Virus record (IMG/VR): IMGVR_UViG_3300044961_000667
Reading direction: 5' to 3' (one strand)
DNA length: 64,000 bases
From: a virus
Taxonomy: Duplodnaviria > Caudoviricetes
Shown: in pieces, positions 7,698 to 52,327 of the stretch
Layout of the letters: each line of letters begins with the position of its first letter
Numbering within the stretch: the stretch's first letter is position 1
Notes under the pieces: generated by a model
Seen by the model: the letters and a program-made list of their open reading frames with translations, nothing else
What the model was told of the DNA's origin: nothing
Databases searched by the model: none
Program-made: the position numbers and the translations under genes

Positions 7698-10600
7698 TCA
7701 GCCTTTGACAGGAAGCAGCGGAGCCCAGTTGTCCTTCGCGCCTGGCTCTTCCTTCGGCCGCATGGTCTCGCCCTTCTCGTTCCTCGGGAGAACCCAGTCG
7801 ATGTCCTCGACAGTGGCGTCTCGGTACTCGCTGATGCCAGGGGAGGCAACCAGCGGCTGGGGCGCCAGCCTGGTGGTCAACGACATCGTCACACCGGCGA
7901 GTCCGTCGGCAACGTCTTTCGACCCATCCTGGGGGTGATCGACCTTCTTGCGCTTCGGGTTCCACTCCAGTTGCCGCAACTCCTTCTCCAAGTGCGGGAA
8001 CGGCAAACAGTCGAACCGCTCCTCGTTGATCGCGTTCTTCAGCAGATCGTACGCGTCCGACGAGGAGTCGACCGACAACACCTCCGCCTTGTACCCCTTC
8101 GAGTTCAGGTTCTGCCTCATGTCGGCGCTGTTGTGCGACATGAAACCGTTGGCCAGATAGGACGGATCGTCCTCTACCTCCAAGTCGAAAACATCAGCTT
8201 CACCATCAGCCTCAACGCTCACCACCCTCGCGAAGATTCTTCGTCCGACAACACCAACATGCTTCTCAAGCTCAACCTGCTTGCGGGAGTACGAGAACCC
8301 AATCCTCTCCAGGAACTTCCGCCTGGCGCCACGTACTCCCACCACATACTGGACACCATCCTTGACGTAATCGCCTGGGTGTCCTCGCTCCATGATCACC
8401 AGTTTCGACTCGATGCCAAAGTCACATCGCAGCATCAACCTCACCTGGTCGGCCAGATCCCGATGCTTCGTCGACAACGAAACGTAGCCGTCCAATCGCC
8501 CAACATTTCCGTCGGTCGCGAACAGGCCCCTCAGGAATGACGCCTTCACGGCACGACTACCCCTGAGCACGGCCTCCGGAACAAGAGGTTTTCGCAGGCC
8601 ATTCTGCTCCATCCATCTCACCAGCCACCGAGCACTCACGGACACAGTCCCGAACCCAGCCCCGTCTACACCGCGATACTCTGGCGCCACACCAAACAGC
8701 CTCATGAATACAGCCTGGGCATCGACAGCCTCGTCGTCGGTGACGGTTAGCCTGACGGAGTCTTCGCCGATATTTCCGTCGCCCCAAACGAGACCAAGCC
8801 ATTCGGCCAGGGCCGGTCCCATCCGAACCGGAAGCGACCACTCCGAGAGCACACCTGCGCGAGCAGGACTCCAGCCGAGGTCTCGCTTGTCACCGACCAG
8901 CTCAACATCGGGCGCGTCCATCTCGACAGGCGACGACGCCATCCGCACCACGTCGCCTGCGCGAATCTCGTCCAGCCTACGCCACTCCCAGATTGGTTCG
9001 CGAGTCCAACCAAATTCGGATTCGCTCTCAGGCCCCCATCCAACTTGCACCTCAATCCGGTGTCGCCCGGTGCCGACCAAGCTGTCTCCGTCGGCCGTCG
9101 ACAATTTCAGTACCGGCTGTCGACCAAAGGCCCAAACATTCTTCACTGGTTTTGGCCCTGCGCGCGACTGAACTATGTCGCCAATCAGGACTTCCTCGAT
9201 CGGCAACAAGCCGCGGCTTGTGCTCACTCTCGTTCCAGCAGCCAAGCACTGGTACGTGTCCATCGTCACCAGCCCGATGTGGAAACCGTGCTCGGTCAGC
9301 TCGTAGATGAGGCGCCGCACTTCGGCCATCGGGATCTCCCCCCGGTCCGGCGGAACGATGCGCAGCGCCAAGTCGATCACGATGAACGGAACCATCTCCT
9401 TCGACTTCTTGCCGCTCGACCAGTTCGTCCTCACCACCTCGACCATCTTGGCGACGTGCCCCATCGCGAAGCCGTACGAGTCGTCAGAAAGCGCAGGGTC
9501 GAGATGGATGTGTCGCTGCGCGTCGGGATTGAACCGCGGCTTGTAGCTCAACAACGTCTTCCCGTTGACCGACCGACGCTGACGCTCCACGCACAACGCC
9601 GACCAATCGAGGGCCAGCGGCGTGGTGGGATCCCACTCCAAGCCTCCCGGCCGCGGCATGGGGCGCTTCGACGACAGCGCCTTGATGATCTTCTCCTTGT
9701 TCCTGATGTACGGCCGAATCGAGTCGGTCGCGATGCCGGCGATCTCGCGAAGCGAGCCGTCCAGGTCCTCCTCGAAGTCTGAACGAAAGTCGATCGGCAC
9801 CTCGATGATGCGTTGCTTGCCTTGAGCGACGGTGTCGGGCACCGGCTCCGAATCAGCAAGCACTCGGCTCGACACGTCGTCGGTCCCGATGACGACACGG
9901 AACTTCTGATCGCTGTACTTCTTGACGTCCCACAGCGCGTACTCGCGAACGAAGATGCGCGGGTTGTCGGCCGACTCTCGGATCTTGCGCTCGGTGAAGT
10001 CGGTCGTGCCCTTCTTCGACGAGATCGTCATCAACATGCCTGGCATCTGGCCACCACGCAGGAAGCGGGACTTCATGCGGCGCAAGATGCTGGAGTACAG
10101 CTGCGAGCCCTTGTCGATGTGCCCCCACCGCGCGTGCGACGCCTTCTGCTCGCGGGTGAACGACATGAAGTTCGTCTCGTCGATGGCTGCACCAAAGACG
10201 TTTCGACCGATGACGCTGTTGTCGGCGGACGACGCCGGCACCGCCCAGATGTTCTTCGGAAAGCGAAGCGCCTCCATCGAGCGGTGACACTTGAACTTCT
10301 CGTTGAAGTACGGGCTCACGATCAGCTTCTGCGCGAGGCCCTCCAACAGCGTCGCCATCGCCGTCTTTTCGTTGACGCTGATGCCGGCGAACACGATCTC
10401 AGAACCAGAAGCCAACCCGTACGAACGCTGCGGGTTCCTCAGGCAGCTCATCTCGTAGATCTGCCGAGCGATGACGATCTCGGCGAAGGTCGACTTGCCC
10501 CAGCCGATGGCGCCGCCGAGGACGACCTCGTGGTACGAGCCAGTGAACAGCTCGACGACGTCCTCCTTCAGCTTGGGCCACAGGCCCTTCGCGACTTCCC

Positions 10601-10841
10601 CGAAGTAGTAGTCGTCGTCGAGCCAGGTGCGGACGTCAACAACCTCGCGCTCGTACTCCGCTTCAGAGGCCAGCTTCAGGAGCGTCTTCACCCCATCCTG
10701 GGTTTCCTGCGCCTCGCGAAGAATGGTCTCGACAAAGACCTTCTCCTCCGGAGTCAGATCCTTGTAGTCGCTTTCGAGGAGCTTGATGTCCTCCTGCGGC
10801 GTACGAACGCTGATCTGTCTGCCACCGATGTCGACGATCAT
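7698..10841 (-). CDS. terL: Terminase large subunit, intein-containing
   Basis: Walker A GGAIGWGKS, Walker B FGAAIDE, nuclease motifs HIHLDPALSDD and KKVDHPQDGSKDVADG; upstream of portal. Confidence 0.93.
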   Translation of the reverse strand: MIVDIGGRQISVRTPQEDIKLLESDYKDLTPEEKVFVETILREAQETQDGVKTLLKLASEAEYEREVVDVRTWLDDDYYFGEVAKGLWPKLKEDVVELFTGSYHEVVLGGAIGWGKSTFAEIVIARQIYEMSCLRNPQRSYGLASGSEIVFAGISVNEKTAMATLLEGLAQKLIVSPYFNEKFKCHRSMEALRFPKNIWAVPASSADNSVIGRNVFGAAIDETNFMSFTREQKASHARWGHIDKGSQLYSSILRRMKSRFLRGGQMPGMLMTISSKKGTTDFTERKIRESADNPRIFVREYALWDVKKYSDQKFRVVIGTDDVSSRVLADSEPVPDTVAQGKQRIIEVPIDFRSDFEEDLDGSLREIAGIATDSIRPYIRNKEKIIKALSSKRPMPRPGGLEWDPTTPLALDWSALCVERQRRSVNGKTLLSYKPRFNPDAQRHIHLDPALSDDSYGFAMGHVAKMVEVVRTNWSSGKKSKEMVPFIVIDLALRIVPPDRGEIPMAEVRRLIYELTEHGFHIGLVTMDTYQCLAAGTRVSTSRGLLPIEEVLIGDIVQSRAGPKPVKNVWAFGRQPVLKLSTADGDSLVGTGRHRIEVQVGWGPESESEFGWTREPIWEWRRLDEIRAGDVVRMASSPVEMDAPDVELVGDKRDLGWSPARAGVLSEWSLPVRMGPALAEWLGLVWGDGNIGEDSVRLTVTDDEAVDAQAVFMRLFGVAPEYRGVDGAGFGTVSVSARWLVRWMEQNGLRKPLVPEAVLRGSRAVKASFLRGLFATDGNVGRLDGYVSLSTKHRDLADQVRLMLRCDFGIESKLVIMERGHPGDYVKDGVQYVVGVRGARRKFLERIGFSYSRKQVELEKHVGVVGRRIFARVVSVEADGEADVFDLEVEDDPSYLANGFMSHNSADMRQNLNSKGYKAEVLSVDSSSDAYDLLKNAINEERFDCLPFPHLEKELRQLEWNPKRKKVDHPQDGSKDVADGLAGVTMSLTTRLAPQPLVASPGISEYRDATVEDIDWVLPRNEKGETMRPKEEPGAKDNWAPLLPVKG
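8130..9248 (-). mobile_element. Intein (373 aa) with LAGLIDADG homing endonuclease in terminase
   Basis: Starts CLAAGTRV after TMDTYQ and ends YLANGFMSHN before Ser (+1). Contains WLGLVWGDG and FLRGLFATDG motifs. Visibly more A/T at third codon positions than the flanks. Confidence 0.95.
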
Positions 10842-10844
10842 CGG

Positions 10845-11564
10845 CTACTCCTCGCTCGACTCGTCACCGCCAGCCGCAGGCTCGACCTGCGGATCGTCGA
10901 TGGGCTTCGACTCCGCGTCCACGACCTCTTCCGCAGCCGTCTTGCTGATCCTCATCAGCCGCTCCGCGAAGTTCAGCGCCTTCCGCCGTGAAGCCGGATC
11001 GTTGATGACCTTCGACACCTCCTCGCGGCCGTACCTCGCGCTCAGGTCCGCCGTGAGATGGGTGTCGACGTCGAGCTGACCGATGTGGCGCTTGTCGATA
11101 CCCAGGTCCATCTTCAGCTCGGCGCGGTTCTTCAGAATCCGCATCGCGATGTACATTTCGGCGCCGGTCCCCTTGAAGAGCTTGTTCAGCTTCTTCTCGG
11201 TCGCCATGTCGATCTCGATGCGCTCACACTGCCACTTGTAGAGCTTCTCCAGCTCCGCAAGCTCATCGAGGCCGCTCTCGATCTTGCTCACGGCCTTGTG
11301 CAGCACCTCGGGCATCCGCACCGAAACCAGCTGCCCTGGCGGCAACGACTCGCGGTACGACCCGAGCATCGCCACCATGCGGTCGCGCGTGATGTCGGTG
11401 TACTCCTTGGCGTCCTCCTGGATGTACTTGGCGACAGCAGCGAGGGCCCACCCCGCGAGGATGCGCTTGTGCACCTCCTCGAAGCAGTTCAACCCACGGA
11501 GTCGGACGAACCGCGTGGGGCGGGCGGTCGGTCTGGTGACTGGGCGAAGCCTCTCGGTAGTCAT
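10845..11564 (-). CDS. Probable terminase small subunit
   Basis: Immediately upstream of terL; N-terminal HTH-like segment (ILAGWALAAVAKYIQE) followed by helical coiled coil. Call is mainly positional. Confidence 0.55.
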   Translation of the reverse strand: MTTERLRPVTRPTARPTRFVRLRGLNCFEEVHKRILAGWALAAVAKYIQEDAKEYTDITRDRMVAMLGSYRESLPPGQLVSVRMPEVLHKAVSKIESGLDELAELEKLYKWQCERIEIDMATEKKLNKLFKGTGAEMYIAMRILKNRAELKMDLGIDKRHIGQLDVDTHLTADLSARYGREEVSKVINDPASRRKALNFAERLMRISKTAAEEVVDAESKPIDDPQVEPAAGGDESSEE

Positions 11565-11576
11565 CGACAGCTCTCT

Positions 11577-11594
11577 CGCGCAATCGATTGCGCG
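11577..11594. promoter_or_regulatory. Perfect 18-bp palindrome CGCGCAATCGATTGCGCG (copy 1 of 6)
   Basis: Read directly; 12 nt upstream of the terS start. Confidence 0.85.
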
Positions 11595-11610: not shown

Positions 11611-12021
11611 CTACTTCTCGGACAGCCCGAGTTCCTTCAGCGCCTGTTCGAGCGTACCACCGTCCAGCAGCGCAGCCATTCTGGTGGCATCGCCGACCGT
11701 CGGTTCTGCTCCCGGCTTCCTGGGCTTCCAGAACAGCCTGTCGCCGATCTGCACCAGCTCCTGGTGGTGCGTCTTCACGAAGCGCAGGAGGCCGCAGTCG
11801 CACAGCTTGACCTGCTTGTCTGCGTCACCGCCCTTGCCCAGGACCGTGAACGCACCCTTGCCGAAGCACCGTCGACAGCCCTTCTTCGCGGAAAGGGCTA
11901 CCTCCGCCGGCTTGACTGGCTCCAGATCGTTCAGCCCGACTCCCAGGGAGTCTCGGACCTGCTGGTCGAGCTTCTTGTAGGGCTCGGGCACTTCAGGCGC
12001 AGCCTGCTCGGGGGTGTTCAC
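11611..12021 (-). CDS. Small Cys-containing (CRRC...CDC) putative zinc-binding protein
   Basis: GTG 12021 overlaps the ParB stop (GTGA). It is the C-terminal 136 aa of track ORF 11611..12636. Confidence 0.65.
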   Translation of the reverse strand: MNTPEQAAPEVPEPYKKLDQQVRDSLGVGLNDLEPVKPAEVALSAKKGCRRCFGKGAFTVLGKGGDADKQVKLCDCGLLRFVKTHHQELVQIGDRLFWKPRKPGAEPTVGDATRMAALLDGGTLEQALKELGLSEK

Positions 12022-12848
12022 GCCGCCGCCTCCGGGGCCGGCTTCTCTTCCGCGGCAGCCGCCACCGGCTCCTTCGGCAGATCCTCGACGTCCTTCTCCC
12101 AGTCCTTGAGCACGCGGTGCAGGAACTGGTTGATGTCGACCTTCGCCTTCATCGAGCGATCGGCGATCGCCTTCGCCTGCTTGAACGTCTCGGCGTCGCA
12201 CGCGATGTAGAGGTGCTCCTTCGAGCCGTACGTGAACACCATGAAGTTCTGCGTGATGGTGTCGCCGTACTCGTTGAAGAGGTGGTTCAGCACCGCCGAC
12301 AGATCGTCGATGGTCTTCACCTCCTTCTTCATCTCGTCGAACTTCTCCAGCATGTCGCCCGACAGCCCCGTGCTCTCCAGGGCCTCGCGGACTCCGCCGA
12401 CGAGCTTCTTGAAAGCCGCCTCGTCGGTGAAGCCCATCAGGTTCTGCATGGCGTCTTCGCCGTACCGCTGAGCCAGCTCGTTGTAGAGGCCGACCATCCT
12501 CTCGGGATCGAGCTTGCCCTTGATGACGTTGAGGCGGACGGTGACGAACTTCTGAAGGTCCACGTCCTTCCACTTCGTCTCCGACAGGACGGCCACCGGC
12601 ACCTCGGCGATGCCGAGCGACTTCGCTGCTCGCCACCGGTGCTCACCACCGATGATCCTGAGCTTCCCGTTCTCCATCGGGATCGCCTGGATCTGGTCGA
12701 TGAACCCGACGTTCGAGATCTCCTCCGCGAGCCGATTGAACTCGCGGTCGCTCATCTGGTTCGGGTTCCAGGGGTTCGGTTCCAGCTCGTCGACCGGCAC
12801 GAGCTTCGACACGTACACCTGGGGGATGTGGCTGTTCGTCTCGCTCAT
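12018..12848 (-). CDS. ParB/Sulfiredoxin N-terminal domain protein
   Basis: VPVDELEPNPWNPN...IIGGEHRWRAAK...VPV motif; C-terminal half not recognised. Confidence 0.88.
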   Translation of the reverse strand: MSETNSHIPQVYVSKLVPVDELEPNPWNPNQMSDREFNRLAEEISNVGFIDQIQAIPMENGKLRIIGGEHRWRAAKSLGIAEVPVAVLSETKWKDVDLQKFVTVRLNVIKGKLDPERMVGLYNELAQRYGEDAMQNLMGFTDEAAFKKLVGGVREALESTGLSGDMLEKFDEMKKEVKTIDDLSAVLNHLFNEYGDTITQNFMVFTYGSKEHLYIACDAETFKQAKAIADRSMKAKVDINQFLHRVLKDWEKDVEDLPKEPVAAAAEEKPAPEAAA

Positions 12849-12858
12849 CGTTCCTCCG

Positions 12859-14013
12859 TCAGCTGGTTGCGTACTTGCGAATCACTTCGCAGACCTGATC
12901 GGCCTGGCTCTCCAGCATGTGAGGCGACGAGGGGAGCAACACGCCCTTGCGAGCGATCTCCTCGGACACGGAGAACTTCCCGGCCTGCCACTGGTTCCGG
13001 TAGATCGGCAGGCTGGCCATCGGCTCGAAGAACGGGCGCACTTCGATCTTCTTCTCCGACAGCTCCGCGAGGAACTTCGGACGATCGATGGGCCGCTCGA
13101 ACAGCAGCGCGTTGAGCCAGTACACCGGCTTGTTGCCCGCGATGGGCTTCTGCACGGTCACCAGCTTCCGGTTCACGAGATCGGCGAGGCGCACTGCGTA
13201 CCAGTCTGCCACCTGGCGCTTCCTCTTGACCACCTCGGGCAGGATGTCGACCTGCGCAGAGCCGATCGCGCCCATGACGTTGCCCATGTTGTACTGCCAG
13301 GCGATCTCGTCGTGGTAGTAGCGCCGCTTGTCGTCGGGGCGACCGAGGTCTCCGAGCTTCTTGATGCGGTGGTACACCTCGGGGTCGTTGGTCAGCGTCA
13401 TCCCGCCTTCGCCGACGCCGATCATCTTGTCGCCGCGGAAGCTGAAGCTGGATGCGTCGCCGACCGCGCCAACCATCACGCTGTCCATGTCGGTGGCGGA
13501 AGTCGCGTTGGACCGCAGAACGCCGATGCTGGCTCCGTGGGCCTCGGCACAGTCCTCGATGAGGATCACGCCCGTCTGGTCGCACATCTTCCTGAGCTTC
13601 ATCGTGTCGCGAGCCGGGTGCCCGTAGATGTGCACGAGAACGATGGCCGTGACGCCTCCGGCCTCGATCTCCTTCTTGGCCGCCTCGAAGTCCATGCCGA
13701 AAGTCTCTCGCTCCACCTCCACGAGCGTCACGCGAGCGCCGGCGTGCACCACCGCGTTCGGCGTGGCCACGCACGTGTAGTTCGGCACGAGCACGCGACC
13801 GCCAGTGACGCCGCAGCCGGCGAGGGCCAAGGTGATGGCGGTCGTCCCGTTGCAGTTCGCGAACCCATGCTTCACGCCGAGCAGCTCGCAGAACTTCCGC
13901 TCGAACTCGTCGACAAAGCGACCACGAGTGAGCCAGTTCTCCTCGAAGCACTTGGCCACGTTGGCCATCTCGTTGCCGCTCAGAAACGAATCAGTCAATC
14001 GCACGACGGACAT
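12859..14013 (-). CDS. DegT/DnrJ/EryC1/StrS PLP-dependent NDP-sugar aminotransferase (perosamine synthase-like)
   Basis: NGTTAITLAL, TCVATPNAV, IEDCAEAHG, SFRGDKMIGVGEGGM (catalytic Lys kept), QYNMGNVMGAIG, RPFFEP. Confidence 0.93.
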   Translation of the reverse strand: MSVVRLTDSFLSGNEMANVAKCFEENWLTRGRFVDEFERKFCELLGVKHGFANCNGTTAITLALAGCGVTGGRVLVPNYTCVATPNAVVHAGARVTLVEVERETFGMDFEAAKKEIEAGGVTAIVLVHIYGHPARDTMKLRKMCDQTGVILIEDCAEAHGASIGVLRSNATSATDMDSVMVGAVGDASSFSFRGDKMIGVGEGGMTLTNDPEVYHRIKKLGDLGRPDDKRRYYHDEIAWQYNMGNVMGAIGSAQVDILPEVVKRKRQVADWYAVRLADLVNRKLVTVQKPIAGNKPVYWLNALLFERPIDRPKFLAELSEKKIEVRPFFEPMASLPIYRNQWQAGKFSVSEEIARKGVLLPSSPHMLESQADQVCEVIRKYATS

Positions 14014-14026
14014 CTCTACCTCCTGG

Positions 14027-14758
14027 TCAGTTCAGCTTCCGGAAAGCGAAGACCCGATAGCGCGGCTTCAGGAACCACAGCAGCTTCTCCCCCAGCCGGG
14101 TCAGCCAGTAGGAGACAGCGTTCTTCCCCAGCAGGCGGAAGATCGCTCCGTCGACTCGATTGACGACCTCGACTGCATCGAGATCGAAGCCAACCTGGAA
14201 GAAGTTGAACTTCATCTTCGACTCGGTCTCGATGTCCTTGTAGCCGAGCCCCTTCTGGAAGGCCGGCACCAGCGGAGGCGCCCACTCCAGCACCATCGCC
14301 ACCGTCCCCGGCTTGCACTTGGCCAGGTAGCCGAACAACGCCTCGCGGTCGTCGTGCGGCATGAAGTTGTAGACGGTGAGCAGCGTGACGACGTCGGCGA
14401 TCCCGATGTGCGTCTCCACGGCAGCGGACGGCACGGTCCCGGCCTCGAAGAACAGCCGCATGTTGGCGCTCTTCGTTGCCCGCTCGACGAACTCAGCGCG
14501 ATCGAGTCCGACGGTCTTCGTGTTCGCCCCGCCCAGCTCAGACAACAGCTTGGTGAAGGTTCCCACGCCGCAGCCGATGTCGACCACCATCGACGCGCCC
14601 TGGAAATACGACTTGAGCCGGCGCAACGCGGCGCTTCGCACCTCGAACGAGTACCCGTCCTGCCACCTGTTCAGGAAGTGACAGGGGTCTCCGCCCTCGG
14701 CGTTCCGCTTCTCCCAGAACGCATCGATCTCACTCTTTGTCCACATCCTGGTCAGCAT
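14027..14758 (-). CDS. Class I SAM-dependent methyltransferase
   Basis: VVDIGCGVG motif I, VGLD motif II. Confidence 0.88.
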   Translation of the reverse strand: MLTRMWTKSEIDAFWEKRNAEGGDPCHFLNRWQDGYSFEVRSAALRRLKSYFQGASMVVDIGCGVGTFTKLLSELGGANTKTVGLDRAEFVERATKSANMRLFFEAGTVPSAAVETHIGIADVVTLLTVYNFMPHDDREALFGYLAKCKPGTVAMVLEWAPPLVPAFQKGLGYKDIETESKMKFNFFQVGFDLDAVEVVNRVDGAIFRLLGKNAVSYWLTRLGEKLLWFLKPRYRVFAFRKLN

Positions 14759-16187
14759 CTTGGGGCAGCTCGTCTTTGGGCTGAACGCTCTTGGCGGTCA
14801 GGCGTGGGTCTTCACTCTGATGATCGTCGTCGTAGTACCGAAGCGCCGTGTCGTAGAGGCACAGCATCGGGAACGATCCGCGGTTCGACCGCGAAGCGAA
14901 GATCATGTTCTTCGTGTACGCGCGGTTGATGACTTCCTTCTGCAGCTGACTGAAGGTCAGGCTCGTCAACCCTTCCTTCACGCAGCGCTCTACCAGCTCG
15001 GCGAGCCGCTTGGCGGGCTTCCTCGGGTACGAGCGCTCGTTGATCGTGGCCAGCATCCTCGCCATGCCCGTGTCTCGGCTGTAGTGATCGGCCGTCCACT
15101 GCGACACGTCGGCGAGCTTCTCCTTCAGCTCGTCGTGGTGTTCCATCATGTACCGCAGGAGCGTGACTCCCTCCTCGGTGGACTTGAACAGCAGCGGGTA
15201 GCCAGGCTTGAGAATCTTCTTCTCGTGCCCGTAGTCCTGGAACGCGACCATCAGCCCCGCGTACAGCCACTCGTGCGGCGAGCTGGGGAACATCTTCAGT
15301 GACTGGATGAAGATGCCGTAGTGACAGCGCGCCATCTGGCGCCACATGTCGCGCTGCGACAGGCCCGTGTGGATCTCGACAGCGCCCTGGCGACGCCCTT
15401 CCATCACCTTCGTCAGCCGCGGGTTCTCCCGAGCCGTACAGATGATGACCTTCACCTCGCGACCGCTGCGGAACAGGTAGTCGGCCAGCTCGATGGCGCG
15501 TTCTCCGCCCTTCGTGTTGGTGAACCGCCCCGAGAAGAAGAAGGTCGGCACCTTCTCTTTCTCAACGCCTTCGATGGCCGCGGTCACCTCCGCCGGCGAG
15601 AAGGCGATCGGCACCACCTGCAGATTCTTGTCGATGCGGTTGAACCACGACGGCGACATCGTCAGCCTGGCCGCTTCGAGCACCGCCTTCTTCTGGAACT
15701 CGCTGAACAGGAACGTGTGACAGCTGGCGTACCCGGTCTGATGAAACAGCAGGTTCGTCTCTTCGGTCTGCAGCTCATCGCTGCCGACGTACTTGGTCGA
15801 GAAGTCCCAGATGTACACCGGCACGGGGCGATAGCCGCCGCCACCGAACACGTTGAAGAACTCCGCGAGCCGACCACCGATGCCGGCGTTGTTCGTCACG
15901 ACGAAGTCGACAGGCCGAGAGCCCCAGATCGGGTTGTACTTGATCAGCTTGTCGTAGAAGACCATCTCGTGCTCGTCGCGCGTGGCGACGAAGTCGTACG
16001 GGATGGTCTCAACCCCAGGGATGGGCTCCTCTTCCTTGCCCTTCTCCCCGTACCTGTGCGGAACGAACCAGGTCACGAAGTGGCCCTGGCTCGCGAGGAA
16101 CTTGGCGAACGCCTTCGTGAGGATGAACGACGAGTCAGCCCGGTAGTCGGACGGGAACTCGTAGCTCGGGAAGATGAGCGCTCTCAC
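14730..16187 (-). CDS. GT-B fold glycosyltransferase (GT4-like)
   Basis: GHFVTWFVP, FFFSGRFTNTKG and a C-terminal donor-binding region (MFPSSPHEWLYAG...YPLLF); cluster context. Confidence 0.75.
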   Translation of the reverse strand: MRALIFPSYEFPSDYRADSSFILTKAFAKFLASQGHFVTWFVPHRYGEKGKEEEPIPGVETIPYDFVATRDEHEMVFYDKLIKYNPIWGSRPVDFVVTNNAGIGGRLAEFFNVFGGGGYRPVPVYIWDFSTKYVGSDELQTEETNLLFHQTGYASCHTFLFSEFQKKAVLEAARLTMSPSWFNRIDKNLQVVPIAFSPAEVTAAIEGVEKEKVPTFFFSGRFTNTKGGERAIELADYLFRSGREVKVIICTARENPRLTKVMEGRRQGAVEIHTGLSQRDMWRQMARCHYGIFIQSLKMFPSSPHEWLYAGLMVAFQDYGHEKKILKPGYPLLFKSTEEGVTLLRYMMEHHDELKEKLADVSQWTADHYSRDTGMARMLATINERSYPRKPAKRLAELVERCVKEGLTSLTFSQLQKEVINRAYTKNMIFASRSNRGSFPMLCLYDTALRYYDDDHQSEDPRLTAKSVQPKDELPQDADQDVDKE

Positions 16188-17149
16188 TCAAAGCACCAGC
16201 CACCGTTCTGGAGGTACCACTCGACCGTCTTCTTGAGGCCCGACTTGAAGTCGGTGAACGGCCGGTCGACGTACTTCTTCAGCTTCGAGGCGTCAGCCAG
16301 CAAGTGGTTGACGTCGAGCGGACGAATGCGCGACTGGTCGACACGCACCTCGCGGGTGAACTTGACGCCCTTCTCCTGGAGAACGTCCATCGTCCACTGC
16401 GCGATGTCTGACACCTTGTGCGTCTCGCCGGTGCCGATGTTGATGACCTCTCCGAAGATGTCGTCGCGCTGGGCCAGCTCGCAGGCGATCTCGGCCGCAT
16501 CGTCGACGTAGACGAAGTCGCGGAACGAGGCCAGGTTCCCCAGCTTGATGACGTTCTCCTTCACGGCCTGGCGGATGATCTCCGGGATCACGTACGGGTG
16601 CGTCTCGCGCGGCCCGTAGCAGTTGAACTGCCGGAAGATGATCAGCTTCAGCCCGCGCTCGTACTGCCACACCCACGCCAGGCGCTCTTGGGCGAGCTTG
16701 GAAACAGCGTAGGTGGAGTAGGGGTTGAGAGGCGACGTTTCGCTCAGGAAAGTCCCCTTGCCGTCCCCGTACAGCTCACTGGACGAGTACAGGATGACTC
16801 TCGGCTTGTGGTCCGACTTCACCACCGCCTCGTAGAGCGCCATGCTGTCGCCGACGTTCGAGTCGAAGAACACCTTGGGCTGGTCGAACGACTTCGGGAT
16901 GTACGGCTCCGCGGCCAGGTGGAACACCACGTCGATGCCGTGCTGGTCGATGAACTTCGGAAGGACCGAGCCGACCGGCTGAATGCACACCTTCAGCATC
17001 GGGTCTTCCGGCAGGTGCTTCTGCGAACCGGCCCGCATGTCGTCGACCACCACGACACGGCACTCCCGGCTCAGCAGCGAGCGAACCAGGGAGGAGCCGA
17101 TGAAACCCGCACCGCCAGTGACCAACACCGTCTTGCCAGAGAGATTCAT
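16184..17149 (-). CDS. NAD-dependent NDP-sugar epimerase/4,6-dehydratase (extended SDR)
   Basis: LVTGGAGFIGS, FHLAA, SSSELYG, YAVSK (YxxxK), RQFNCYGP, RDFVYVDD. Confidence 0.93.
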   Translation of the reverse strand: MNLSGKTVLVTGGAGFIGSSLVRSLLSRECRVVVVDDMRAGSQKHLPEDPMLKVCIQPVGSVLPKFIDQHGIDVVFHLAAEPYIPKSFDQPKVFFDSNVGDSMALYEAVVKSDHKPRVILYSSSELYGDGKGTFLSETSPLNPYSTYAVSKLAQERLAWVWQYERGLKLIIFRQFNCYGPRETHPYVIPEIIRQAVKENVIKLGNLASFRDFVYVDDAAEIACELAQRDDIFGEVINIGTGETHKVSDIAQWTMDVLQEKGVKFTREVRVDQSRIRPLDVNHLLADASKLKKYVDRPFTDFKSGLKKTVEWYLQNGGWCFE

Positions 17150-17192
17150 TTTCAGTCCGCGTCGTTCAAGAGGTCAGTACTGCCCTCGAACG

Positions 17193-17221
17193 GCCATACC
17201 GTCCATGATCTGCTCTGTCAA
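17193..17221 (-). promoter_or_regulatory. Sigma70-like promoter upstream of the dehydratase
   Basis: TTGACA-17 bp-TATGGC in the 120-bp intergenic gap, just after an imperfect hairpin at ~17235-17263. Confidence 0.5.
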
Positions 17222-17269
17222 CGCACGAGAGCCAGGCAAACCCGAGAGACGCCAGGGGTTTGGCCAGCC

Positions 17270-18712
17270 CTACCCGCGCTTCATGTGGAGCTTGGGCCCG
17301 TCGCACATGTCGACGTACCCGAACGACGTCAGCATCCACTTCATCGCCAACGGCGAGATGTACTTGAAGTCCGCCTGAGCCCTGGATCGAGCGCTCATCG
17401 CCTTGTAGACGACGGAGAGGTCGCTCACCTCGGGCCACTGTTCGGCCTTCACCGCCTCTTCGAGAAGCCCGTACGCAGGACTGATGCGCTGCACAGTCTC
17501 GATGTTCCGCTTGGCGACCGGCTCCATGAACTGCTTCACGGCCGCGTCCCAGGCACGAGCGACATCGATGGTGCCCCACGGCTCGGTGAACTCGATGAGC
17601 TTCTTGCCCCACTGCGCCTTCACCTCATCGAAGTTCTTCGCGACGTACGCCAGCTTCACTCGCAGGTCAGCCATCCCCTTCGCGATGAACGGGTAGTCCT
17701 TCGGCAGGCGGTTCCGAATCCACACAGTGTCGGTCACCACGGGGATCTGCCCCGAGCGAATCGCCTCCATGTAGGCCAGGCCGGTGCCTTCGTAGTCGCA
17801 GGCGCACACCAGCACGTCACCTTCGTGCAGCGACTCGATGTAGCGCCTGTGGCCGACCCCCGTTTCCAGCTGGACCTGCTGCTCACCGAAGGGATTCTCC
17901 TTCGGAGTGTGCTGCGTCTTGAAGACTCCCTGGATCGGGAATCCCTTGCTGGTCAGCTCGTACAACTGCTTGGCCACCTGCTCCAGGTGTCGCTTCCCCT
18001 CCAGTGAGCCACCGTGGAAGACGGCAACCTTCCCCGTCTCCCGCCGGCGAGCCGCACGCTTCTGCTCGAACTCGTCGCGCTGCTTGTCGATGGGCGGGTA
18101 GTCGGCGCACGCGCGAATCACGTACGTCCACTTCATGATCCGGTCGACCATCGACGGCGACATGCAGCGGCGGACGACACGAAACAGTTCGTCACGGTCG
18201 TACTCGTTCATCACGAACACCGGACCGACAGCCGCCGCCGAGGAGATGAGCGCATACCCCGCCTCCTCGCGCATCGTCGGCAGGCGATCGTCCAGGCTGG
18301 ACTCGGTGTAGTACGTCACCACCGGAACCTCGATCTGCTGGTACCACTTCCCCGGCGGCACGGTGAACGCCAGCTTCAGCGCAGCCGAGTGGAAGAACTT
18401 CTGGTTCAGCACGTAGTCGAACAGCACCTTCCCCTTCTTCGGGAGAAGGGGCGTCATCGTCTCCATCGAGATCGGCGGGAAGTCGAACTGGCTGATGAAC
18501 GGGTCGCCCATCGGCAGCGTGTTGATCCACGGCTTCTGGAAGTACGAGTCGTCCCAGTTCAGCTCGTTCTTGTTGGGCGGGACGACCCACTCGCAGTAGT
18601 GCCGCGAGCCGATCGCATCCAGGCCCTCCAGCACCGCCTGCATGTTGTTCATCATGCTGTTGCCGGAGAGATCCTTCGACGTGTACAGCTCGATGAGACT
18701 CAGGAAGCGCAT
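17270..18712 (-). CDS. Second GT-B fold glycosyltransferase
   Basis: Start moved to ATG 18712 (TGATG overlap). VFHGGSLEGKRH and YEGTGLAYMEAIRSGQIPVV match the GT4-type E-x7-E donor-binding motif. Confidence 0.8.
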   Translation of the reverse strand: MRFLSLIELYTSKDLSGNSMMNNMQAVLEGLDAIGSRHYCEWVVPPNKNELNWDDSYFQKPWINTLPMGDPFISQFDFPPISMETMTPLLPKKGKVLFDYVLNQKFFHSAALKLAFTVPPGKWYQQIEVPVVTYYTESSLDDRLPTMREEAGYALISSAAAVGPVFVMNEYDRDELFRVVRRCMSPSMVDRIMKWTYVIRACADYPPIDKQRDEFEQKRAARRRETGKVAVFHGGSLEGKRHLEQVAKQLYELTSKGFPIQGVFKTQHTPKENPFGEQQVQLETGVGHRRYIESLHEGDVLVCACDYEGTGLAYMEAIRSGQIPVVTDTVWIRNRLPKDYPFIAKGMADLRVKLAYVAKNFDEVKAQWGKKLIEFTEPWGTIDVARAWDAAVKQFMEPVAKRNIETVQRISPAYGLLEEAVKAEQWPEVSDLSVVYKAMSARSRAQADFKYISPLAMKWMLTSFGYVDMCDGPKLHMKRG

Positions 18713-19749
18713 CACTTGCTCCAGTCCTTCGCGTTCTTCAGCGACTCCTCGATGTACTTTCTCACGTCGCCCTTCACCTCGTCCCACAGCTTCGCGCCCT
18801 CGTCATCCGTGTTCCAACCGAACTGCTTGGCGCAGATGTCCAGGGCTTCGTTCCTCCACCGAATCGGACGCTCGTTGGGGAGCAGCAGAGCGGACTCGAA
18901 GAAGAACATCAGCATCCCCATCTTGAAGGGGTCGATGTTCCGCTCCGTGCCCACCTTCGAGAGCGCGTTCTTGCCGCGGTAGGTGTGCAGGTCGAGCCCG
19001 TACCAGTCGACCGTGTCGGCCATCTCGATGTCGCCAGGCTCGACAACGATGCCAGGCCACGGAATGGGCTCCTGCTTCGGCTGGTCGATGAGCGCCATGA
19101 CGATGGCGCAGATCAACATCTCCTCGTCGCCCAGCATGCACTTCCGCACGAGCCGCCAGAGGCAGCCCTCGACGATCTGCTGCGTCCAGGGGTTGGTCGC
19201 CTCGGCTCGCGTGGTGATGACCCTCACCAATCCGTGACGAGCCAGGAACTCCTTCGCTCGGTGCGCCGCCATGCAGATGCGAGACGCCTCGATGTAGTCC
19301 TTCGCGTCGAGCGCCTTCTCCAAGCCCGTCACGGAGTACCACTTCGTCGTCTTCAGGTTCTCGTCCGCGATGGTGTAGAGCCAGCCCGCCTCCTTCGACT
19401 TGGGCAACGTCGCCAGGTTCGCGATGAGCGAGTACAGCCCCTTCATCTGCTCGGGACGCATCGGGCCTGCCGTCTTCATCATCGGCCACGTCTTGGCCTC
19501 GGCGTAGACCCGCGGCATGAACTCCCACCCCAGGTCCTCGACGCAGATGATCGGGATGCGCTTGCACAGCGCAATCCGCTCCTCCGTGCCGTGGGACACC
19601 ATGCCGGCGGCCGTGGCCAACGCCTTCTGGACCTCAGTCCGCCGCAGGTGCTTCTGGAAGGCGGACTTCAACTCCGCCGGGTGAACCTTCGACTTCCGTG
19701 GCCCCTCGAAAAGGGCCACCTGGACTGCTGCTTTCTGAGCCACTGACAT
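18712..19749 (-). CDS. RarA/MgsA C-terminal-like domain protein lacking the AAA+ ATPase
   Basis: LKSAFQKHLRR...KRIPIICVEDLG resembles RarA SALHKSIRG...RRLVIIASEDIG; later YGLDLHT. No Walker A. Confidence 0.6.
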   Translation of the reverse strand: MSVAQKAAVQVALFEGPRKSKVHPAELKSAFQKHLRRTEVQKALATAAGMVSHGTEERIALCKRIPIICVEDLGWEFMPRVYAEAKTWPMMKTAGPMRPEQMKGLYSLIANLATLPKSKEAGWLYTIADENLKTTKWYSVTGLEKALDAKDYIEASRICMAAHRAKEFLARHGLVRVITTRAEATNPWTQQIVEGCLWRLVRKCMLGDEEMLICAIVMALIDQPKQEPIPWPGIVVEPGDIEMADTVDWYGLDLHTYRGKNALSKVGTERNIDPFKMGMLMFFFESALLLPNERPIRWRNEALDICAKQFGWNTDDEGAKLWDEVKGDVRKYIEESLKNAKDWSK

Positions 19750-22899: not shown

Positions 22900-22917
22900 C
22901 GCGCAATCGATTGCGCG
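22900..22917. promoter_or_regulatory. Perfect 18-bp palindrome CGCGCAATCGATTGCGCG (copy 2)
   Basis: Abuts the GAGGAG RBS of the Cas4-like gene. Confidence 0.85.
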
Positions 22918-22939: not shown

Positions 22940-23311
22940 TCAACGATGAGCGGACTTCACCGACATCGACATCATCTCTTCGATCGTGGGCTCGCCTTCG
23001 ATCACCCCGAAGATCTGGTCTTCGGAAACGACACGCCAGGACCTGCTTGCGCCATCCTGGTGGTAGCTCTTGTCGTTGAACTGGTTGCCCATGTAGCAGT
23101 CGAACGCCACCAGGTCGCCGACCTTCACGTCGTGCACGACCGGAACGTTCTTCTTCGTCAGCCCCTGGCCGAGAGCCACCACTCGACCGAACCTGAGCCG
23201 CGCCTCCTTCTGAACGGGGATCAGGATTCCCGCCGCCGTCTTCGTCTCGGTGGGAAGCGGAATGTCTTCGATCTGAACGAAACCGTGCAGCGGTCTCAGC
23301 TTTGGGGCCAT
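22940..23311 (-). CDS. groES: Co-chaperonin GroES (Cpn10)
   Basis: KLRPLHGFV...TAAGILIP...GRVVALGQG...DVKVGDLV...VVSEDQIFGVIE. Confidence 0.88.
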   Translation of the reverse strand: MAPKLRPLHGFVQIEDIPLPTETKTAAGILIPVQKEARLRFGRVVALGQGLTKKNVPVVHDVKVGDLVAFDCYMGNQFNDKSYHQDGASRSWRVVSEDQIFGVIEGEPTIEEMMSMSVKSAHR

Positions 23312-23381
23312 GAAGAGCGGACTCCGTTGAGGGTCAAAAGCGTCGACTGTCAATCACAGAATCCGCCCTTCGTCCACCGCA

Positions 23382-37421: not shown

Positions 37422-38210
37422 TCAGAAAGCCTTGTTGCCGTGCTTGAAGCCGCGCGCCCGGTTCTTCTCCAGCTTGGCCGCCACGATGCTCCACATGCGG
37501 TTGGCCGGGTCGAGCTTGTCGCACAGCGCCTCGCAGTCGACGATCAGCCGACCGAACTCTCGCTGCATCTCCTGCGCGTTCGGCGTCTCCGGCTTCCGGT
37601 ACGCCTCCATCAGCCGGAACGACGGCATCACCACCAGCCGCATCACCTGGGCGTAGAAGTGCTCCATCGAGAAGAGCCGCAGGTCGCGCTCCACCTTGTG
37701 CACCCCGACTCGCGTCAGCCCCGTGATGTTGTAGTACGCCAGCTGCGGATTCATCTCCAGCTTCCGCATCAGGTGCAGCACCCGAATCACCACGTCGGCG
37801 AACTCGATCTGCATCCGCTTCACCCACTCCGCCGTCGGCACCGGCTCACCATTCTCGCCGACCTGGCCGACCTCGAACTCCTCGCACGCTTCCGACGCCT
37901 CGCTGGCGCACAGGGCGAACTTCATCCCCAGCTCCAGCTTGTTGCTGAGATCGATGGTCCACCCGTTCATCTCGTTCACTTCCGTCACTTCGTTCGCGAT
38001 CTCGACGAGATTCACGCCAACGGTCGATTCGTTCTGCACTGGCACCTCCAGAGGATGTTGGACTTCCCACGGGAAACAACGAGCCAGCTGCGGGAAGGTC
38101 AGCCGGCTCAACATCTCGTTCTGTTGAGCCCTGCTGCTCCGCGAGTACAGGAGCTTCAGCTGCTCATCCGAGACTGCGCTCAGGTCCTGGGAAGCGTCTT
38201 CTTGGCCCAT
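37422..38210 (-). CDS. MazG-like (all-alpha) nucleotide pyrophosphohydrolase
   Basis: ALCASEASEACEE...IEFADVVIRVLHL...AAKLEKNRARGFKHG. Confidence 0.75.
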   Translation of the reverse strand: MGQEDASQDLSAVSDEQLKLLYSRSSRAQQNEMLSRLTFPQLARCFPWEVQHPLEVPVQNESTVGVNLVEIANEVTEVNEMNGWTIDLSNKLELGMKFALCASEASEACEEFEVGQVGENGEPVPTAEWVKRMQIEFADVVIRVLHLMRKLEMNPQLAYYNITGLTRVGVHKVERDLRLFSMEHFYAQVMRLVVMPSFRLMEAYRKPETPNAQEMQREFGRLIVDCEALCDKLDPANRMWSIVAAKLEKNRARGFKHGNKAF

Positions 38211-41080: not shown

Positions 41081-41137
41081 TTGCTCTCCCTTGGTGCCAC
41101 CTGTTGCCCGTTGAGTGTCGGGGTCACCACCAAGCAG

Positions 41138-41171
41138 ATGAAACCACCGTTTCTCCTGCTTTGTCAAGAGG
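41138..41171 (-). promoter_or_regulatory. CCTC-TTGACA-18-TTTCAT promoter upstream of uvrD
   Basis: -35 at 41162-41167. Confidence 0.55.
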
Positions 41172-42027
41172 AAGGCGGCTCCGGCGGCTTGTAGTTCAGC
41201 ACCACGATCTCCTCGACATCTCCGCGCTTCTCGTAGTGCGTGTTGATCGACCGCGGCGCCGTCACCGTCCGCACCTCGAACTTCGAGTACAGCGCCTTCA
41301 CCTTCGGGTGACTGCTGTTCGACAGCATCACCTTGACGCCGCGGTCCGTCAGGCGGGAGTACGTCTCCGCCAGCTTCTTGTGGTCGAGCAGCGAGAACTC
41401 ACCCGCGGTGTACGCCGTGAAGCTCGACGTCTTCGACACCGGAAGGTACGGCGGGTCCATGTAGACGAAGTCGCCTTCCTCCGCGTGCGTCAGCACCGCC
41501 TGGTAGGTCACCACGTCCAGCATCGTCCCCCGCAGAGCCTCGGAGCACGCCCGCAGGTTGTCGCGATCGCACACGGTCGGACGGTTCTTGAACTTGCCAG
41601 GCGGGACGTTGAAGCGGCCCTTGTCGTTGACCCGGTACAGGCCGTTGTAGCCCGTCTTGTTCAGGAAGATCATCCGCGCCGCACGCTGCTCTTCGGTCAA
41701 CGACCGCGGCATCTGCTCGCGCACCGAGTAGTAGTACTCGTCCCCGCCGGCAGTCCACGCCTGGTCGTGCTCGTCGAGCCGCTTCACCACGTCCTCGACC
41801 CGGTCTCGCACCATCTTGTACGACCAGATCAGCTCCTCGTTGACGTCGGAGAGCACCACCCGCTTGGCCGCCTTGAGCTTCCCGGCCGCAGCCAGCGAGT
41901 AGAACATCGCCCCTCCGCCGAGGAACGGCTCCATGTACGTGCCGAACTCGGCAGGTAGCATCCCGGCCAGGGTCTCCAACAACGCACCCTTGCCACCAAC
42001 CCACTTCAGAAACGGTCTCGCGCTCAA
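41164..42027 (-). CDS. dam: Dam-family DNA adenine methyltransferase
   Basis: FLKWVGGK, YMEPFLGGGA, SDVN, NKTGYNGLYRVN...FNVP, YMDPPY, VMLSNS. Confidence 0.93.
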   Translation of the reverse strand: MSARPFLKWVGGKGALLETLAGMLPAEFGTYMEPFLGGGAMFYSLAAAGKLKAAKRVVLSDVNEELIWSYKMVRDRVEDVVKRLDEHDQAWTAGGDEYYYSVREQMPRSLTEEQRAARMIFLNKTGYNGLYRVNDKGRFNVPPGKFKNRPTVCDRDNLRACSEALRGTMLDVVTYQAVLTHAEEGDFVYMDPPYLPVSKTSSFTAYTAGEFSLLDHKKLAETYSRLTDRGVKVMLSNSSHPKVKALYSKFEVRTVTAPRSINTHYEKRGDVEEIVVLNYKPPEPPSS

Positions 42028-42566
42028 GCTGGAATTCCTCCTTCGGCAGCTCTGTACCCCTCTCGCACCTTCGTCAAGATGTCAGGCTCCAATCGCCACA
42101 ACTTTTGGTAGCCGCGACACTTCACCGGCTCGATGGGACGCAGATCGGTCAACAGCCACCCGAACGGACCCACGAACCACTCCAGATCCATCTCCGTCGG
42201 CTTGAAGCCCTCCAGCAGCTTCACCTCCATGACGGTCTCGTCCTCGCTGACCCAGCGCTTCGTGTTGTCCAGCATGTCGGGCGAGTCCACCTCCGTCACG
42301 CAGCCCACGAGACGGCCAACGCCGATGATCGCCGAGTCGACGTGCGTCGCGTCCCTCCGCAGGATGTCTCGATGGGGCCCATTCGCGACAAACTGCTCCG
42401 CGTCAGGGTCCCACGCCTTCCCCGCGTGAATCGCGATGTGCTTCCCGTACATCCAGGATGGCGGCGTCCACGGCCTGTTCTCGATGCGCTTGAAACCCTG
42501 GGCCACCCAATGCGCCCAGGGCCGCCACAGCGTGAGGCCCATGATCGACGGATACAGAACGCTCAT
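42024..42566 (-). CDS. ASCH-domain protein
   Basis: GLTLWRPWAHWVAQGFKRIENRPW...IAIHAGK, GPFGWLL, CRGYQKLW; ATGA-coupled. Confidence 0.85.
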   Translation of the reverse strand: MSVLYPSIMGLTLWRPWAHWVAQGFKRIENRPWTPPSWMYGKHIAIHAGKAWDPDAEQFVANGPHRDILRRDATHVDSAIIGVGRLVGCVTEVDSPDMLDNTKRWVSEDETVMEVKLLEGFKPTEMDLEWFVGPFGWLLTDLRPIEPVKCRGYQKLWRLEPDILTKVREGYRAAEGGIPA

Positions 42567-51078: not shown

Positions 51079-51582
51079 TCACCTGTCGGTCGGCTCCACC
51101 CACGCCATGCCGATCGCGTCCAACACCTCCCGCTCCGTCTTCGACGCGACGAGACGATCGCCCTCGAAGAGGCCGTGCTGACTCAGCTGGAGTCCGCGAG
51201 CGATCGCAGCCTGCCGGCACTTGATGTTGAACAGCTTGCTTCCGGTGCAGTGCAGCATCGCCGACCCGAGCTGATGCGGCTCGACCAGGGTGATGTCCAC
51301 CTGAACGCCGTCGTGCAGCAGCTGCATCTTCGGCTTGCCGTTCTTGGCGCTCCCGCAGCGATCACGGAGCCACTGTTCCGTGTCCATCACCTGCTTCAGA
51401 TCCGCCATGGACACCACGACAACGAGATCGACGTCGCCGCAGGTCGGCTGCAGGCGCCGAATACTCCCGGCGACGTGCACCGACACTCCCAGCTTCTGCT
51501 CCATCTCGCCGCGAATCGCCTCTGCGATCTGAGACGCGTCGTGATTGCTGACACGACGTCCACCCAGCGACTTGCCTCCCAT
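51079..51582 (-). CDS. Minimal family X DNA polymerase (palm and thumb only)
   Basis: VAGSIRR...CGDVDLVV, QVDI, LHCTGSKLFNIKCR, GLQLSQHGLF, EREV...IGMAWVEPTDR; 167 aa. Confidence 0.88.
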   Translation of the reverse strand: MGGKSLGGRRVSNHDASQIAEAIRGEMEQKLGVSVHVAGSIRRLQPTCGDVDLVVVVSMADLKQVMDTEQWLRDRCGSAKNGKPKMQLLHDGVQVDITLVEPHQLGSAMLHCTGSKLFNIKCRQAAIARGLQLSQHGLFEGDRLVASKTEREVLDAIGMAWVEPTDR

Positions 51583-51629: not shown

Positions 51630-51662
51630 AAGCTACCAGCTTACGCTAGTTTCGTCAAGAGG
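51630..51662 (-). promoter_or_regulatory. CCTC-TTGACG-17-TAGCTT promoter upstream of polX
   Basis: -35 at 51653-51658, -10 at 51630-51635. Confidence 0.75.
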
Positions 51663-52318: not shown

Positions 52319-52327
52319 CCGGACTTC

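Follow-up and report, generated by a model that had tools for sequence, protein, structure and literature searches.

Why should a tailed phage encode amino-sugar synthesis directly in front of its packaging genes, and onto which acceptor would such a sugar be transferred? This question is raised by a gene cassette in a stretch of 64,000 nucleotides of the viral record IMGVR_UViG_3300044961_000667 (Duplodnaviria; Caudoviricetes). The whole stretch, referred to here as the window, corresponds to positions 96001-160000 of a contig of ~200 kb, and all coordinates are those of the window unless another contig is named. On its minus strand, between 11611 and 18712, lie genes for two glycosyltransferases (GT1 and GT2), a nucleoside diphosphate (NDP)-sugar dehydratase-like enzyme that belongs to the extended type among short-chain dehydrogenases/reductases (SDR), an S-adenosylmethionine (SAM)-dependent methyltransferase, a sugar aminotransferase, a ParB-like protein and a small four-cysteine protein. 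An initial annotation had proposed that the phage makes its own methylated amino-sugar and attaches it to DNA bases or virion proteins, with ParB linking modification to packaging. All enzymes named there are present with essentially the same boundaries, as judged from Pfam, PHROG and NCBIfam searches and from reading of the sequences. We tentatively prefer to regard the locus as a phage-encoded glycosylation cassette whose core is a GT together with a ParB-like NTPase devoid of a helix-turn-helix (HTH) domain, and for which DNA would be the favoured acceptor.

A rare glycosyltransferase family paired with ParB homologues

GT1 and GT2 are paralogous members of a single, rare family in which a GT-B fold is combined with a C-terminal winged helix. 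Its association with ParB was followed in those family members whose full neighbourhood is readable (10 cultured phage lineages and 10 metagenomic loci), and a ParB homologue was found within a few kb of every one of them. Conserved linkage to ParB characterises this GT family, which has not been described before, and the association is much stronger than the initial annotation could know, since widely differing phages have retained the GT-ParB pair. Starting from the ParB side, tblastn detected full-length homologues with 29-40% identity in phages of Arthrobacter, Stenotrophomonas, Rhodobacter, Rhizobium, Agrobacterium and Vibrio; every one that was inspected has a GT of 480-530 amino acids (aa) directly upstream, and none among them lacks it. 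From the GT side, the family profile matched the full-length GT beside ParB in phages DLP5, KarBoss, RcDurkin, TM16, PG28, JP1 and KellEzio (E 1e-41 to 1e-121), and tblastn with the GT of RcDurkin returned only its close relatives.

The genes around this pair differ from phage to phage. DLP5 and DLP3 encode, in this order, a PIG-L deacetylase, SDR, aminotransferase, methyltransferase, GT, ParB, a small-terminase (terS)-like protein and the large terminase (terL); KarBoss, whose record is unannotated, has the same gene sizes and order as DLP5. RHph_TM16 possesses SDR, aminotransferase, GT, ParB and terL, and PG28 a deacetylase and, further along, GT, ParB and terL. In the permuted genome of RcZahn the deacetylase, SDR, aminotransferase, methyltransferase and GT occupy the right end and ParB is gene 1. 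KellEzio contains two GT paralogues and ParB; RcDurkin and JP1 carry GT and ParB only; with regard to hosts, Agrobacterium and Arthrobacter phages have the core alone. More distant family members adjoin a GDSL esterase, a flavoprotein, PIG-L, an AdoMet decarboxylase or a small EamA-like gene. For retrieval of IMG/VR loci a profile of a 22-sequence subset was used, as the alignment of 100 sequences was too diverse for finding loci; ParB within 4 kb and SDR occurred in 8/8 of these loci each, an aminotransferase in 7/8 and a GT1-like paralogue in 4/8. GT-ParB adjacency was further seen in contig L023 and in Logan contig L001, where GT, methyltransferase, DegT and ParB are located beside SSB and nuclease genes and no terminase gene was recognised in the 4 kb downstream. 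Hence GT and ParB represent a fixed core, and the sugar-tailoring genes vary between phages. The view of the initial annotation that self-made amino-sugar decoration would be unusual for a bacteriophage was overstated, as the same cassette occurs in cultured Stenotrophomonas, Rhodobacter, Rhizobium and Vibrio phages.

If compared with the cassettes of the Stenotrophomonas phages DLP5/DLP3, the Rhodobacter phage RcZahn (RcDurkin also infects Rhodobacter), the Rhizobium phage RHph_TM16 and the Vibrio phage KarBoss (PG28 is likewise a Vibrio phage, and KellEzio an Arthrobacter phage), the one described here shares the GT, ParB and terL families and the position between recombination and packaging genes; most of them also encode a sugar dehydratase, an aminotransferase and a methyltransferase. 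In contrast, identity between the tailoring enzymes amounts to no more than 20-27%, the genes are arranged differently, and the window has two GT paralogues, no PIG-L deacetylase, a T4-like head and a genome of ~200 kb. The terL of the window is 32-35% identical with those of DLP5, KarBoss, PG28, TM16, JP1 and RcDurkin. DnaB, primase, superfamily 2 (SF2) helicase, RecA and terL are homologous to those of DLP5 with conserved order, whereas the portal has no detectable similarity to the portals of DLP5, RcDurkin and JP1. The replication genes and terL being homologous and the portal and head unrelated, the GT-ParB pair is co-inherited with genes for DNA handling and not tied to any one virion architecture.

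Common descent could also produce such a pattern. ParB might only be part of a packaging module (ParB-terS-terL), its adjacency to the GT being the inherited order of one broad lineage, and the sugar genes might be independent cargo, including enzymes for a small-molecule glycoside like in the BshA/BshB, MshA/MshB or aminoglycoside pathways. Homology and synteny of ParB, the terS-like gene and terL do indeed extend across the window, DLP5 and KarBoss, and all checked carriers share replication and packaging genes, so that the GT-ParB examples are not phylogenetically independent. Moreover, the combination of a GT4 enzyme, a PIG-L deacetylase and a DegT aminotransferase is known from bacillithiol, mycothiol and aminoglycoside pathways. 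Nevertheless, we regard this explanation, which overlaps with the others discussed below, as rather unlikely. In the metagenomic locus L012 the position of ParB is upstream of the GTs, with the sugar genes between it and terL, i.e. the pairing survives a changed gene order, and in L001, L013, L015 and L018 the pairing is retained with no terL match after ParB within the flank read. The consistent presence of a GT beside the inspected ParB homologues also speaks against mere synteny, as do the inteins carried elsewhere by the GT family and its neighbouring ParB, as conserved core genes tend to do. 

Inteins or LAGLIDADG elements interrupt members of the GT family, the neighbouring ParB and the neighbouring methyltransferase at other loci (P0075, P0135; L023 7508-9475; L022 269-2119). 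A pyruvate-phosphate-dikinase-like gene of 645-700 aa is common to three phages with the GT-ParB pair (DLP5, RHph_TM16 and PG28). In TM16 and PG28 it is accompanied, downstream of terL, by tyrosine-phosphatase-like genes, and such a gene is reported for DLP5 as well; both kinds of gene could belong to the same pathway as GT-ParB.

The transferases, ParB and the predicted sugar

GT2 (14730-16187, minus strand) is a retaining-type GT-B enzyme. Its match to Glycos_transf_1 (PF00534) scores 27.6 bits, just over the gathering cut-off of 26.4, and phrog_30253 is matched with 3e-29. GT1 (17270-18712, minus strand; 480 aa) reaches 18.8 bits only, under this cut-off, and is a diverged, full-length paralogue of the GT2 family (hhalign probability 99.75%, E 2.6e-27). 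The rarity of the family is evident from a single homologue of GT2 (38% identity) in a cluster database of 5.8 billion proteins and from 241 representatives at E≤1e-3 among 1.84 billion, nearly all of them 450-510 aa long; single-protein scans of IMG/VR with GT2 and with the DegT enzyme gave no matches. In the AlphaFold2 model of GT2 (pLDDT 91.7) residues 1 to ~385 adopt the GT-B fold with its two Rossmann domains, and Foldseek (E 1e-10 to 1e-13) relates it to glycogen synthase, sucrose-phosphate synthase (SPS), BshA, MshA, PimA and PglA, with LmbT and WaaG also among the nearest folds. The comparison of the GTs with O-antigen enzymes that the initial annotation had proposed was run as such a fold search: it yielded a generic GT4-like fold, which does not separate DNA, protein and lipid acceptors.

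Residues ~386-470 of GT2 form the predicted winged helix. The last 100 aa show an alpha-beta-alpha-alpha-beta-beta topology. A separate model of this part (pLDDT 83) gave weak matches (Foldseek E 0.07-0.6, VIA Z 5-7), all of them to winged-helix domains, namely those of F93, FoxO1, kleisin WHD, cullin WHB, MCM, H1, Fur and DpnI. Within the GT-B part GT2 keeps the near-invariant R221, K226, H289 and E306, and the first glutamate of its EX7E motif is replaced by lysine (conservation of E298 in the family is 65%). In GT1 the EX7E pair, D94 and the Y-P motif are all retained; the 97%-conserved donor-phosphate arginine of the family is changed to serine and His289 to aspartate, and because of these two exchanges GT1 may use another donor or be an auxiliary protein.

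The ParB-like protein (12018-12848, minus strand) has the ParB-N domain with the CTPase fold (PF02195, 7e-11, 42.4 bits, over the cut-off) and matches phrog_26387 over its full length (2.7e-65). Its box II reads GGEHRWRAA, with the first arginine of GERRxRA changed to histidine. Matches to PDB and Pfam end at about residue 130; no HTH was detected, and with 28 bits against the TIGR00180 cut-off of 58.45 the protein does not reach the level of canonical chromosome or plasmid ParB. ParA was not found among the scanned genes of the window. Weak matches to SerK and SbnI brought up the idea that ParB is the missing sugar-activating enzyme, which was judged unlikely because RcDurkin and JP1 carry GT and ParB without sugar-synthesis genes. 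The gene that follows (11611-12021, minus strand) encodes a 136-aa protein, p136, with a CxxC...CxC four-cysteine motif and no hydrophobic segment in its sequence. It is not conserved in related cassettes, and a conserved third component does not exist, since the small proteins encoded around GT and ParB show no relationship from one phage to another.

The donor sugar can be predicted from the remaining three enzymes. The SDR (16184-17149, minus strand) belongs to the GDP_Man_Dehyd (2e-51) and Epimerase (3e-50) families, and alignment with RmlB (1bxk) shows a GxxGxxG motif (GGAGFIGS), SSSELYG and YAVSK. The NAD site, the YxxxK motif and the catalytic glutamate of 4,6-dehydratases are kept, and the aspartate of the TDE triad of RmlB is replaced by serine as in GMD and UXS. 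RmlB is also its best match among solved structures (1e-34) and, together with LegB, among NCBIfam models, both of them far under their equivalog cut-offs: RmlB (TIGR01181) scores 165 bits (cut-off 365), LegB 160 (475) and GMD 70 (415). As epimerases score nearly as high, dehydratase activity is suggested by the motifs and by the DegT partner. This partner, a pyridoxal phosphate (PLP)-dependent DegT/DnrJ/EryC1 aminotransferase (12859-14013, minus strand; PF01041 281 bits against a cut-off of 19.8), is nearest to C4 enzymes, i.e. GDP-perosamine synthase (1e-51), LegC and PseC. Its PLP lysine is kept, SFRGDKMIG being aligned with the motif FSFFGNKII of GDP-perosamine synthase 3bn1. All product-specific models remain under their cut-offs (LegC 265 bits against 420, PseC 188 against 423.5, DesI 138.5 against 650), and amination at C4 is accordingly a presumption from the nearest relatives. 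The methyltransferase (14027-14758, minus strand; Pfam, NCBIfam) is a generic class I SAM-dependent enzyme with weak and generic PDB matches.

Taken from these sequence features, a methylated 4-amino-4,6-dideoxyhexose is a reasonable inference for the product, and in this respect the proposal of the initial annotation holds. Since the cassette contains no nucleotidyltransferase, a host NDP-hexose is the likely precursor. The SDR would oxidise and dehydrate it to an NDP-4-keto-6-deoxyhexose, the matches hinting at a GDP- or dTDP-linked sugar; the DegT enzyme would aminate it at C4 and the methyltransferase would methylate the sugar. GT2 would then move it to the acceptor, with GT1 possibly as second-step or auxiliary enzyme. 

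DNA, virion protein or host envelope as possible acceptor

In the mechanism which we infer tentatively, replicated phage DNA, or something bound to it, is the likeliest acceptor. Shortly before packaging, the ParB-like protein would bring the transferase onto DNA or activate it there, and the modification would probably be placed at limited or sequence-specific sites and not at every base. To our knowledge, characterised ParB-fold partners almost all act on DNA. The closest parallel is found in the 5mYOX176/ParB176 system (O'Toole et al., PNAS 2026, PMC13229309), in which ParB homologues without HTH activate phage DNA thymine dioxygenases and the modification enzyme depends on its cognate, co-encoded ParB homologue. 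ParB176-type proteins likewise keep the N-terminal NTP-binding domain without an obvious DNA-binding HTH, and their clusters are often near GT and terminase genes. They differ in that the partner here is a GT-B enzyme and not an iron/2-oxoglutarate dioxygenase, which is absent here, and in that the dependence of the GT on ParB is suggested here by gene pairing only. A second parallel are the phage DNA glycosylation pathways, represented by the alpha- and beta-GT of T4, by the GT-A/GT-B clusters associated with TET or ThyS of Pyle et al. (bioRxiv 10.1101/2023.12.21.572611) and by the arabinosyl-5-hydroxycytosine (5hoC) pathway (PMC13326640). They resemble the present cassette, as proposed here, in a late, pre-packaging sugar transfer, and the features reported for them include GTs that are paired or act in sequence, enzymes for sugar tailoring, and neighbouring ParB and terminase genes. 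Their GT-B enzymes resemble BshA, MshA and PglH and are encoded near ParB and terminase genes (Pyle et al.).

Several observations weigh against DNA as acceptor. According to PMC13326640, all known pathways of phage DNA glycosylation start from a hydroxylated base that is made by a ThyA homologue or TET, and such a starting point was found neither here nor in the relatives. An enzyme forming 5-hydroxymethylcytosine or 5-hydroxymethyluracil (hmU), a search for which had been proposed by the initial annotation, did not come up among the scanned genes of the window, which represents 64 of the ~200 kb of the contig, or in the complete relatives. Specifically, ThyA-like, TET and hmU-kinase genes are missing from the scanned open reading frames (ORFs) of the window, a ThyA-type hydroxymethylase or 5hoC synthase (PF00303) is missing from 7 complete and 5 partial relatives, and TET/JBP (PF12851) and hmU-kinase (PF18723) gave no match in the relatives, the positive controls being silent in both searches. 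The scanned window genes do include Dam, a second methyltransferase, a MazG-like pyrophosphatase, thymidylate kinase, a DUF5131 protein and a radical-SAM enzyme. The beta-GT of T4 is outside the top 50 structural matches of GT2, which are small-molecule, lipid and glycan enzymes of GT4/GT5. Winged helices may also serve to bind proteins, and the Z scores of 5-7 of the modelled domain are middling; some related cassettes include small membrane proteins or an EamA-like gene. In the literature searched neither this GT-ParB pairing nor a DegT-type amino-sugar on phage DNA was reported.

Restriction data are of the same tendency. DNA of DLP3 was reported to be resistant to 15/15 restriction enzymes (PMC7326821) and that of DLP5 to be cut by only 4/36 (PMC5834331), and both results were read as heavy modification. 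Site counts in the first 50 kb of DLP3 reveal that 11/15 of the tested enzymes have no site at all; those with sites are EcoRI (6), SmaI (40), ClaI (9) and NdeI (1). In DLP5 18 palindromic hexamers are absent for which 8-55 copies each are expected, and an observed/expected ratio (O/E) below 0.3 is shown by half of the palindromic compared to 0.4% of the non-palindromic hexamers. We therefore rejected this resistance as support for DNA modification, since it is mostly site avoidance. The window behaves similarly in a milder form: AAGCTT, AGGCCT, CCCGGG, CTCGAG, GAGCTC and TTCGAA have 0 copies against 10-47 expected, and O/E is <0.3 for 17.5% of palindromic and 0.38% of non-palindromic hexamers. 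Avoidance of palindromic hexamers, which is extreme in DLP5 and DLP3, implies that the DNA of DLP3/DLP5 (and of the window) is exposed to type II enzymes of the host, and a blanket hypermodification for protection is therefore disfavoured. Marks that are sparse or sequence-selective would be compatible with it.

The sugar could instead be linked to protein, with the GTs O-glycosylating capsid, tail or other phage proteins and ParB being an unrelated neighbour from the packaging module. We consider this unlikely. The GT-ParB pair is kept across unrelated portal and head modules, in siphoviruses as well as in this phage with its T4-like portal, and ParB adjacency is found at every locus with enough flank and survives rearrangement. 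The major capsid gene is located outside the window. The GTs gp108-110 of mycobacteriophage Che8, which we take to be experimentally validated virion GTs, are not detected by the family profile at E≤1, whereas KellEzio and JP1 are matched with 1e-60 to 1e-121. In favour of a protein acceptor it has to be said that GT-B enzymes commonly act on proteins and that the GT genes of Che8 likewise lie at the genome end next to packaging genes. In one metagenomic locus (L022 3945-4244) the GT is followed by a Zn-ribbon protein of 99 aa whose long tail is rich in Thr/Gly, by its look a potential acceptor of O-glycosylation. Glycosylation of mycobacteriophage capsid and tail tube by phage GTs is established (Freeman et al. 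2023, cited in PMC12619734), and Megavirinae encode a 4,6-dehydratase and an aminotransferase that make viosamine- or bacillosamine-type sugars for their fibril glycans (PMC10117803). Virus-encoded GTs are thus common to all these systems; in contrast with the present cassette, the Che8 and giant-virus systems are not known to have a ParB partner or a winged-helix extension.

Improbable to a greater degree is, in our opinion, that the amino-sugar is added to lipopolysaccharide (LPS), teichoic acid, capsule or another surface glycoconjugate of the host during infection or lysogeny. The effect of this would be superinfection exclusion or keeping progeny from being trapped on debris. The authors of the DLP5 and DLP3 reports did propose modification of membrane or LPS (PMC5834331, PMC7326821). 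The nearest folds of GT2 include WaaG, PimA and PglA, and small transmembrane proteins, a rhomboid protein, the small EamA-like gene and tailoring enzymes of the PIG-L or GDSL type are encoded in related cassettes. Nevertheless, family scans of the window cassette (no transmembrane prediction was run) found no flippase, polyprenyl-phosphate transferase, Wzx/Wzy or membrane-protein family. The cassette is located within a DNA-processing and packaging block and not next to lysogeny genes, some of its carriers are regarded as lytic phages (PG28, V-YDF132), and an envelope acceptor leaves the ParB partner and the winged helix unexplained.

If DNA is the acceptor, as we tentatively prefer, the most far-reaching version of the mechanism would be a clamp-guided DNA glycosyltransferase. 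It would place a cationic methylated amino-sugar on DNA without a hydroxymethylated or hydroxylated pyrimidine, i.e. by a new acceptor chemistry, probably sequence-selectively and before packaging, and swappable tailoring genes would diversify the mark. We offer this as a speculation that is rather unlikely to hold in full.

Genomic setting and significance

The window has a G+C content of 63%, and its convincing genes all lie on the minus strand with high G+C at third codon positions. In the order of transcription, replication genes (DNA polymerase III beta clamp, SNF2 helicase, intein-bearing UvrD helicase, DnaB helicase, primase, SF2 helicase and RecA) are followed by a Cas4-like exonuclease, a RuvC-like resolvase and three unknowns. 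Then come the sugar cluster, ParB, the four-cysteine protein, the terS-like gene, the intein-bearing terL, a T4-type portal and a prohead protease of the T4 gp21 type. The cassette is thus placed between the Cas4-like exonuclease and RuvC-like resolvase on one side and the terminase on the other. Its genes are co-directional and mostly overlap or are ≤13 nt apart, the sole exception being a gap of 120 nt between GT1 and SDR. SDR and GT2 overlap by 4 nt, GT2 and the methyltransferase by 29 nt, and ParB and p136 by 4 nt (start of p136, stop of ParB); gaps of 13 nt and 10 nt separate methyltransferase from aminotransferase and aminotransferase from ParB. At the upstream border the true ATG of GT1 overlaps the preceding stop codon by 1 nt as TGATG. 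This stop belongs to an ORF of 345 aa (18712-19749, minus strand) with a predicted MgsA/RarA C-terminal-like fold, for which no Pfam, PHROG or NCBIfam match was obtained. Its structure matches an MgsA_C-containing viral cluster (Atlas) with TM 0.69, and its family is rich in viruses, including giant-virus members.

On either side of the block there is a copy of the palindrome GCAATCGATTGC. One (22903-22914) marks the upstream edge directly before the gene of the Cas4-like exonuclease, the other (11580-11591) lies inside a 46-bp spacer between the cassette and the terS-like gene. Altogether 6 copies are observed in the window (11580, 22903, 35120, 46263, 52330 and 59168), with 0.21 expected; two that were examined are intergenic, shortly upstream of gene starts. 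The palindrome may mark a unit boundary or act as promoter-associated or regulator site of the phage. Because the spacer with GCAATCGATTGC precedes the terS-like gene, the cassette adjoins terS/terL but is not translationally coupled to them. Hence, of the run into terS/terL described in the initial annotation, the co-directional and mostly overlapping arrangement is confirmed and the seamless flow into terS is not. The terS assignment itself (10845-11564, minus strand) relies on position and on weak similarity (E ~5e-5) to the post-ParB gene of DLP5 and KarBoss. The terL gene (7698-10841, minus strand), homologous to that of the relatives, contains a Hint/LAGLIDADG intein at about residues 532-901. 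As an intein-free allele of 674 aa with 99.6% identity exists in a JGI contig of the same phage (L003 7872-9896), this intein is polymorphic in nature. A further intein (Intein_splicing, residues 306-574) interrupts the UvrD-family helicase (38180-41167, minus strand).

Elsewhere on the minus strand the window encodes a GroES-like Cpn10 (22940-23353), a small DNA polymerase beta-like palm/thumb protein (51079-51582) and thymidylate kinase (51641-52333). A run at 37422-43600 (minus strand) comprises the MazG-like pyrophosphatase, a Dam-type N6-adenine methyltransferase, a phrog_3193 protein and the DUF5131 (Gp37/Gp68) protein; the second methyltransferase is found at 56439-57089 and the radical-SAM enzyme at 59594-60958. 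A megablast search of the region against 50,697 phage records gave no relative at the nucleotide level. Near-identical DNA is present in metagenomes of at least 11 independent studies that cover bioreactors, wastewater, soil, biofilm and hot-spring mats.

Independently of the acceptor, the analysis corrects a published inference, as the restriction resistance of DLP3 and DLP5 is largely site avoidance. At least 10 cultured phages carry the core pair, including Stenotrophomonas and Vibrio phages that are studied for therapy. If the acceptor is protein or the host surface, the cassette would still represent a conserved, diversifying glycan system of phages that infect Pseudomonadota and Actinomycetota. 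If the pair acts on DNA, it would constitute a widespread route of phage DNA glycosylation without a thymidylate-synthase homologue or TET; amino-sugars would then join the known DNA modifications, and these GTs would be the second class of enzymes to rely on a ParB-like partner.

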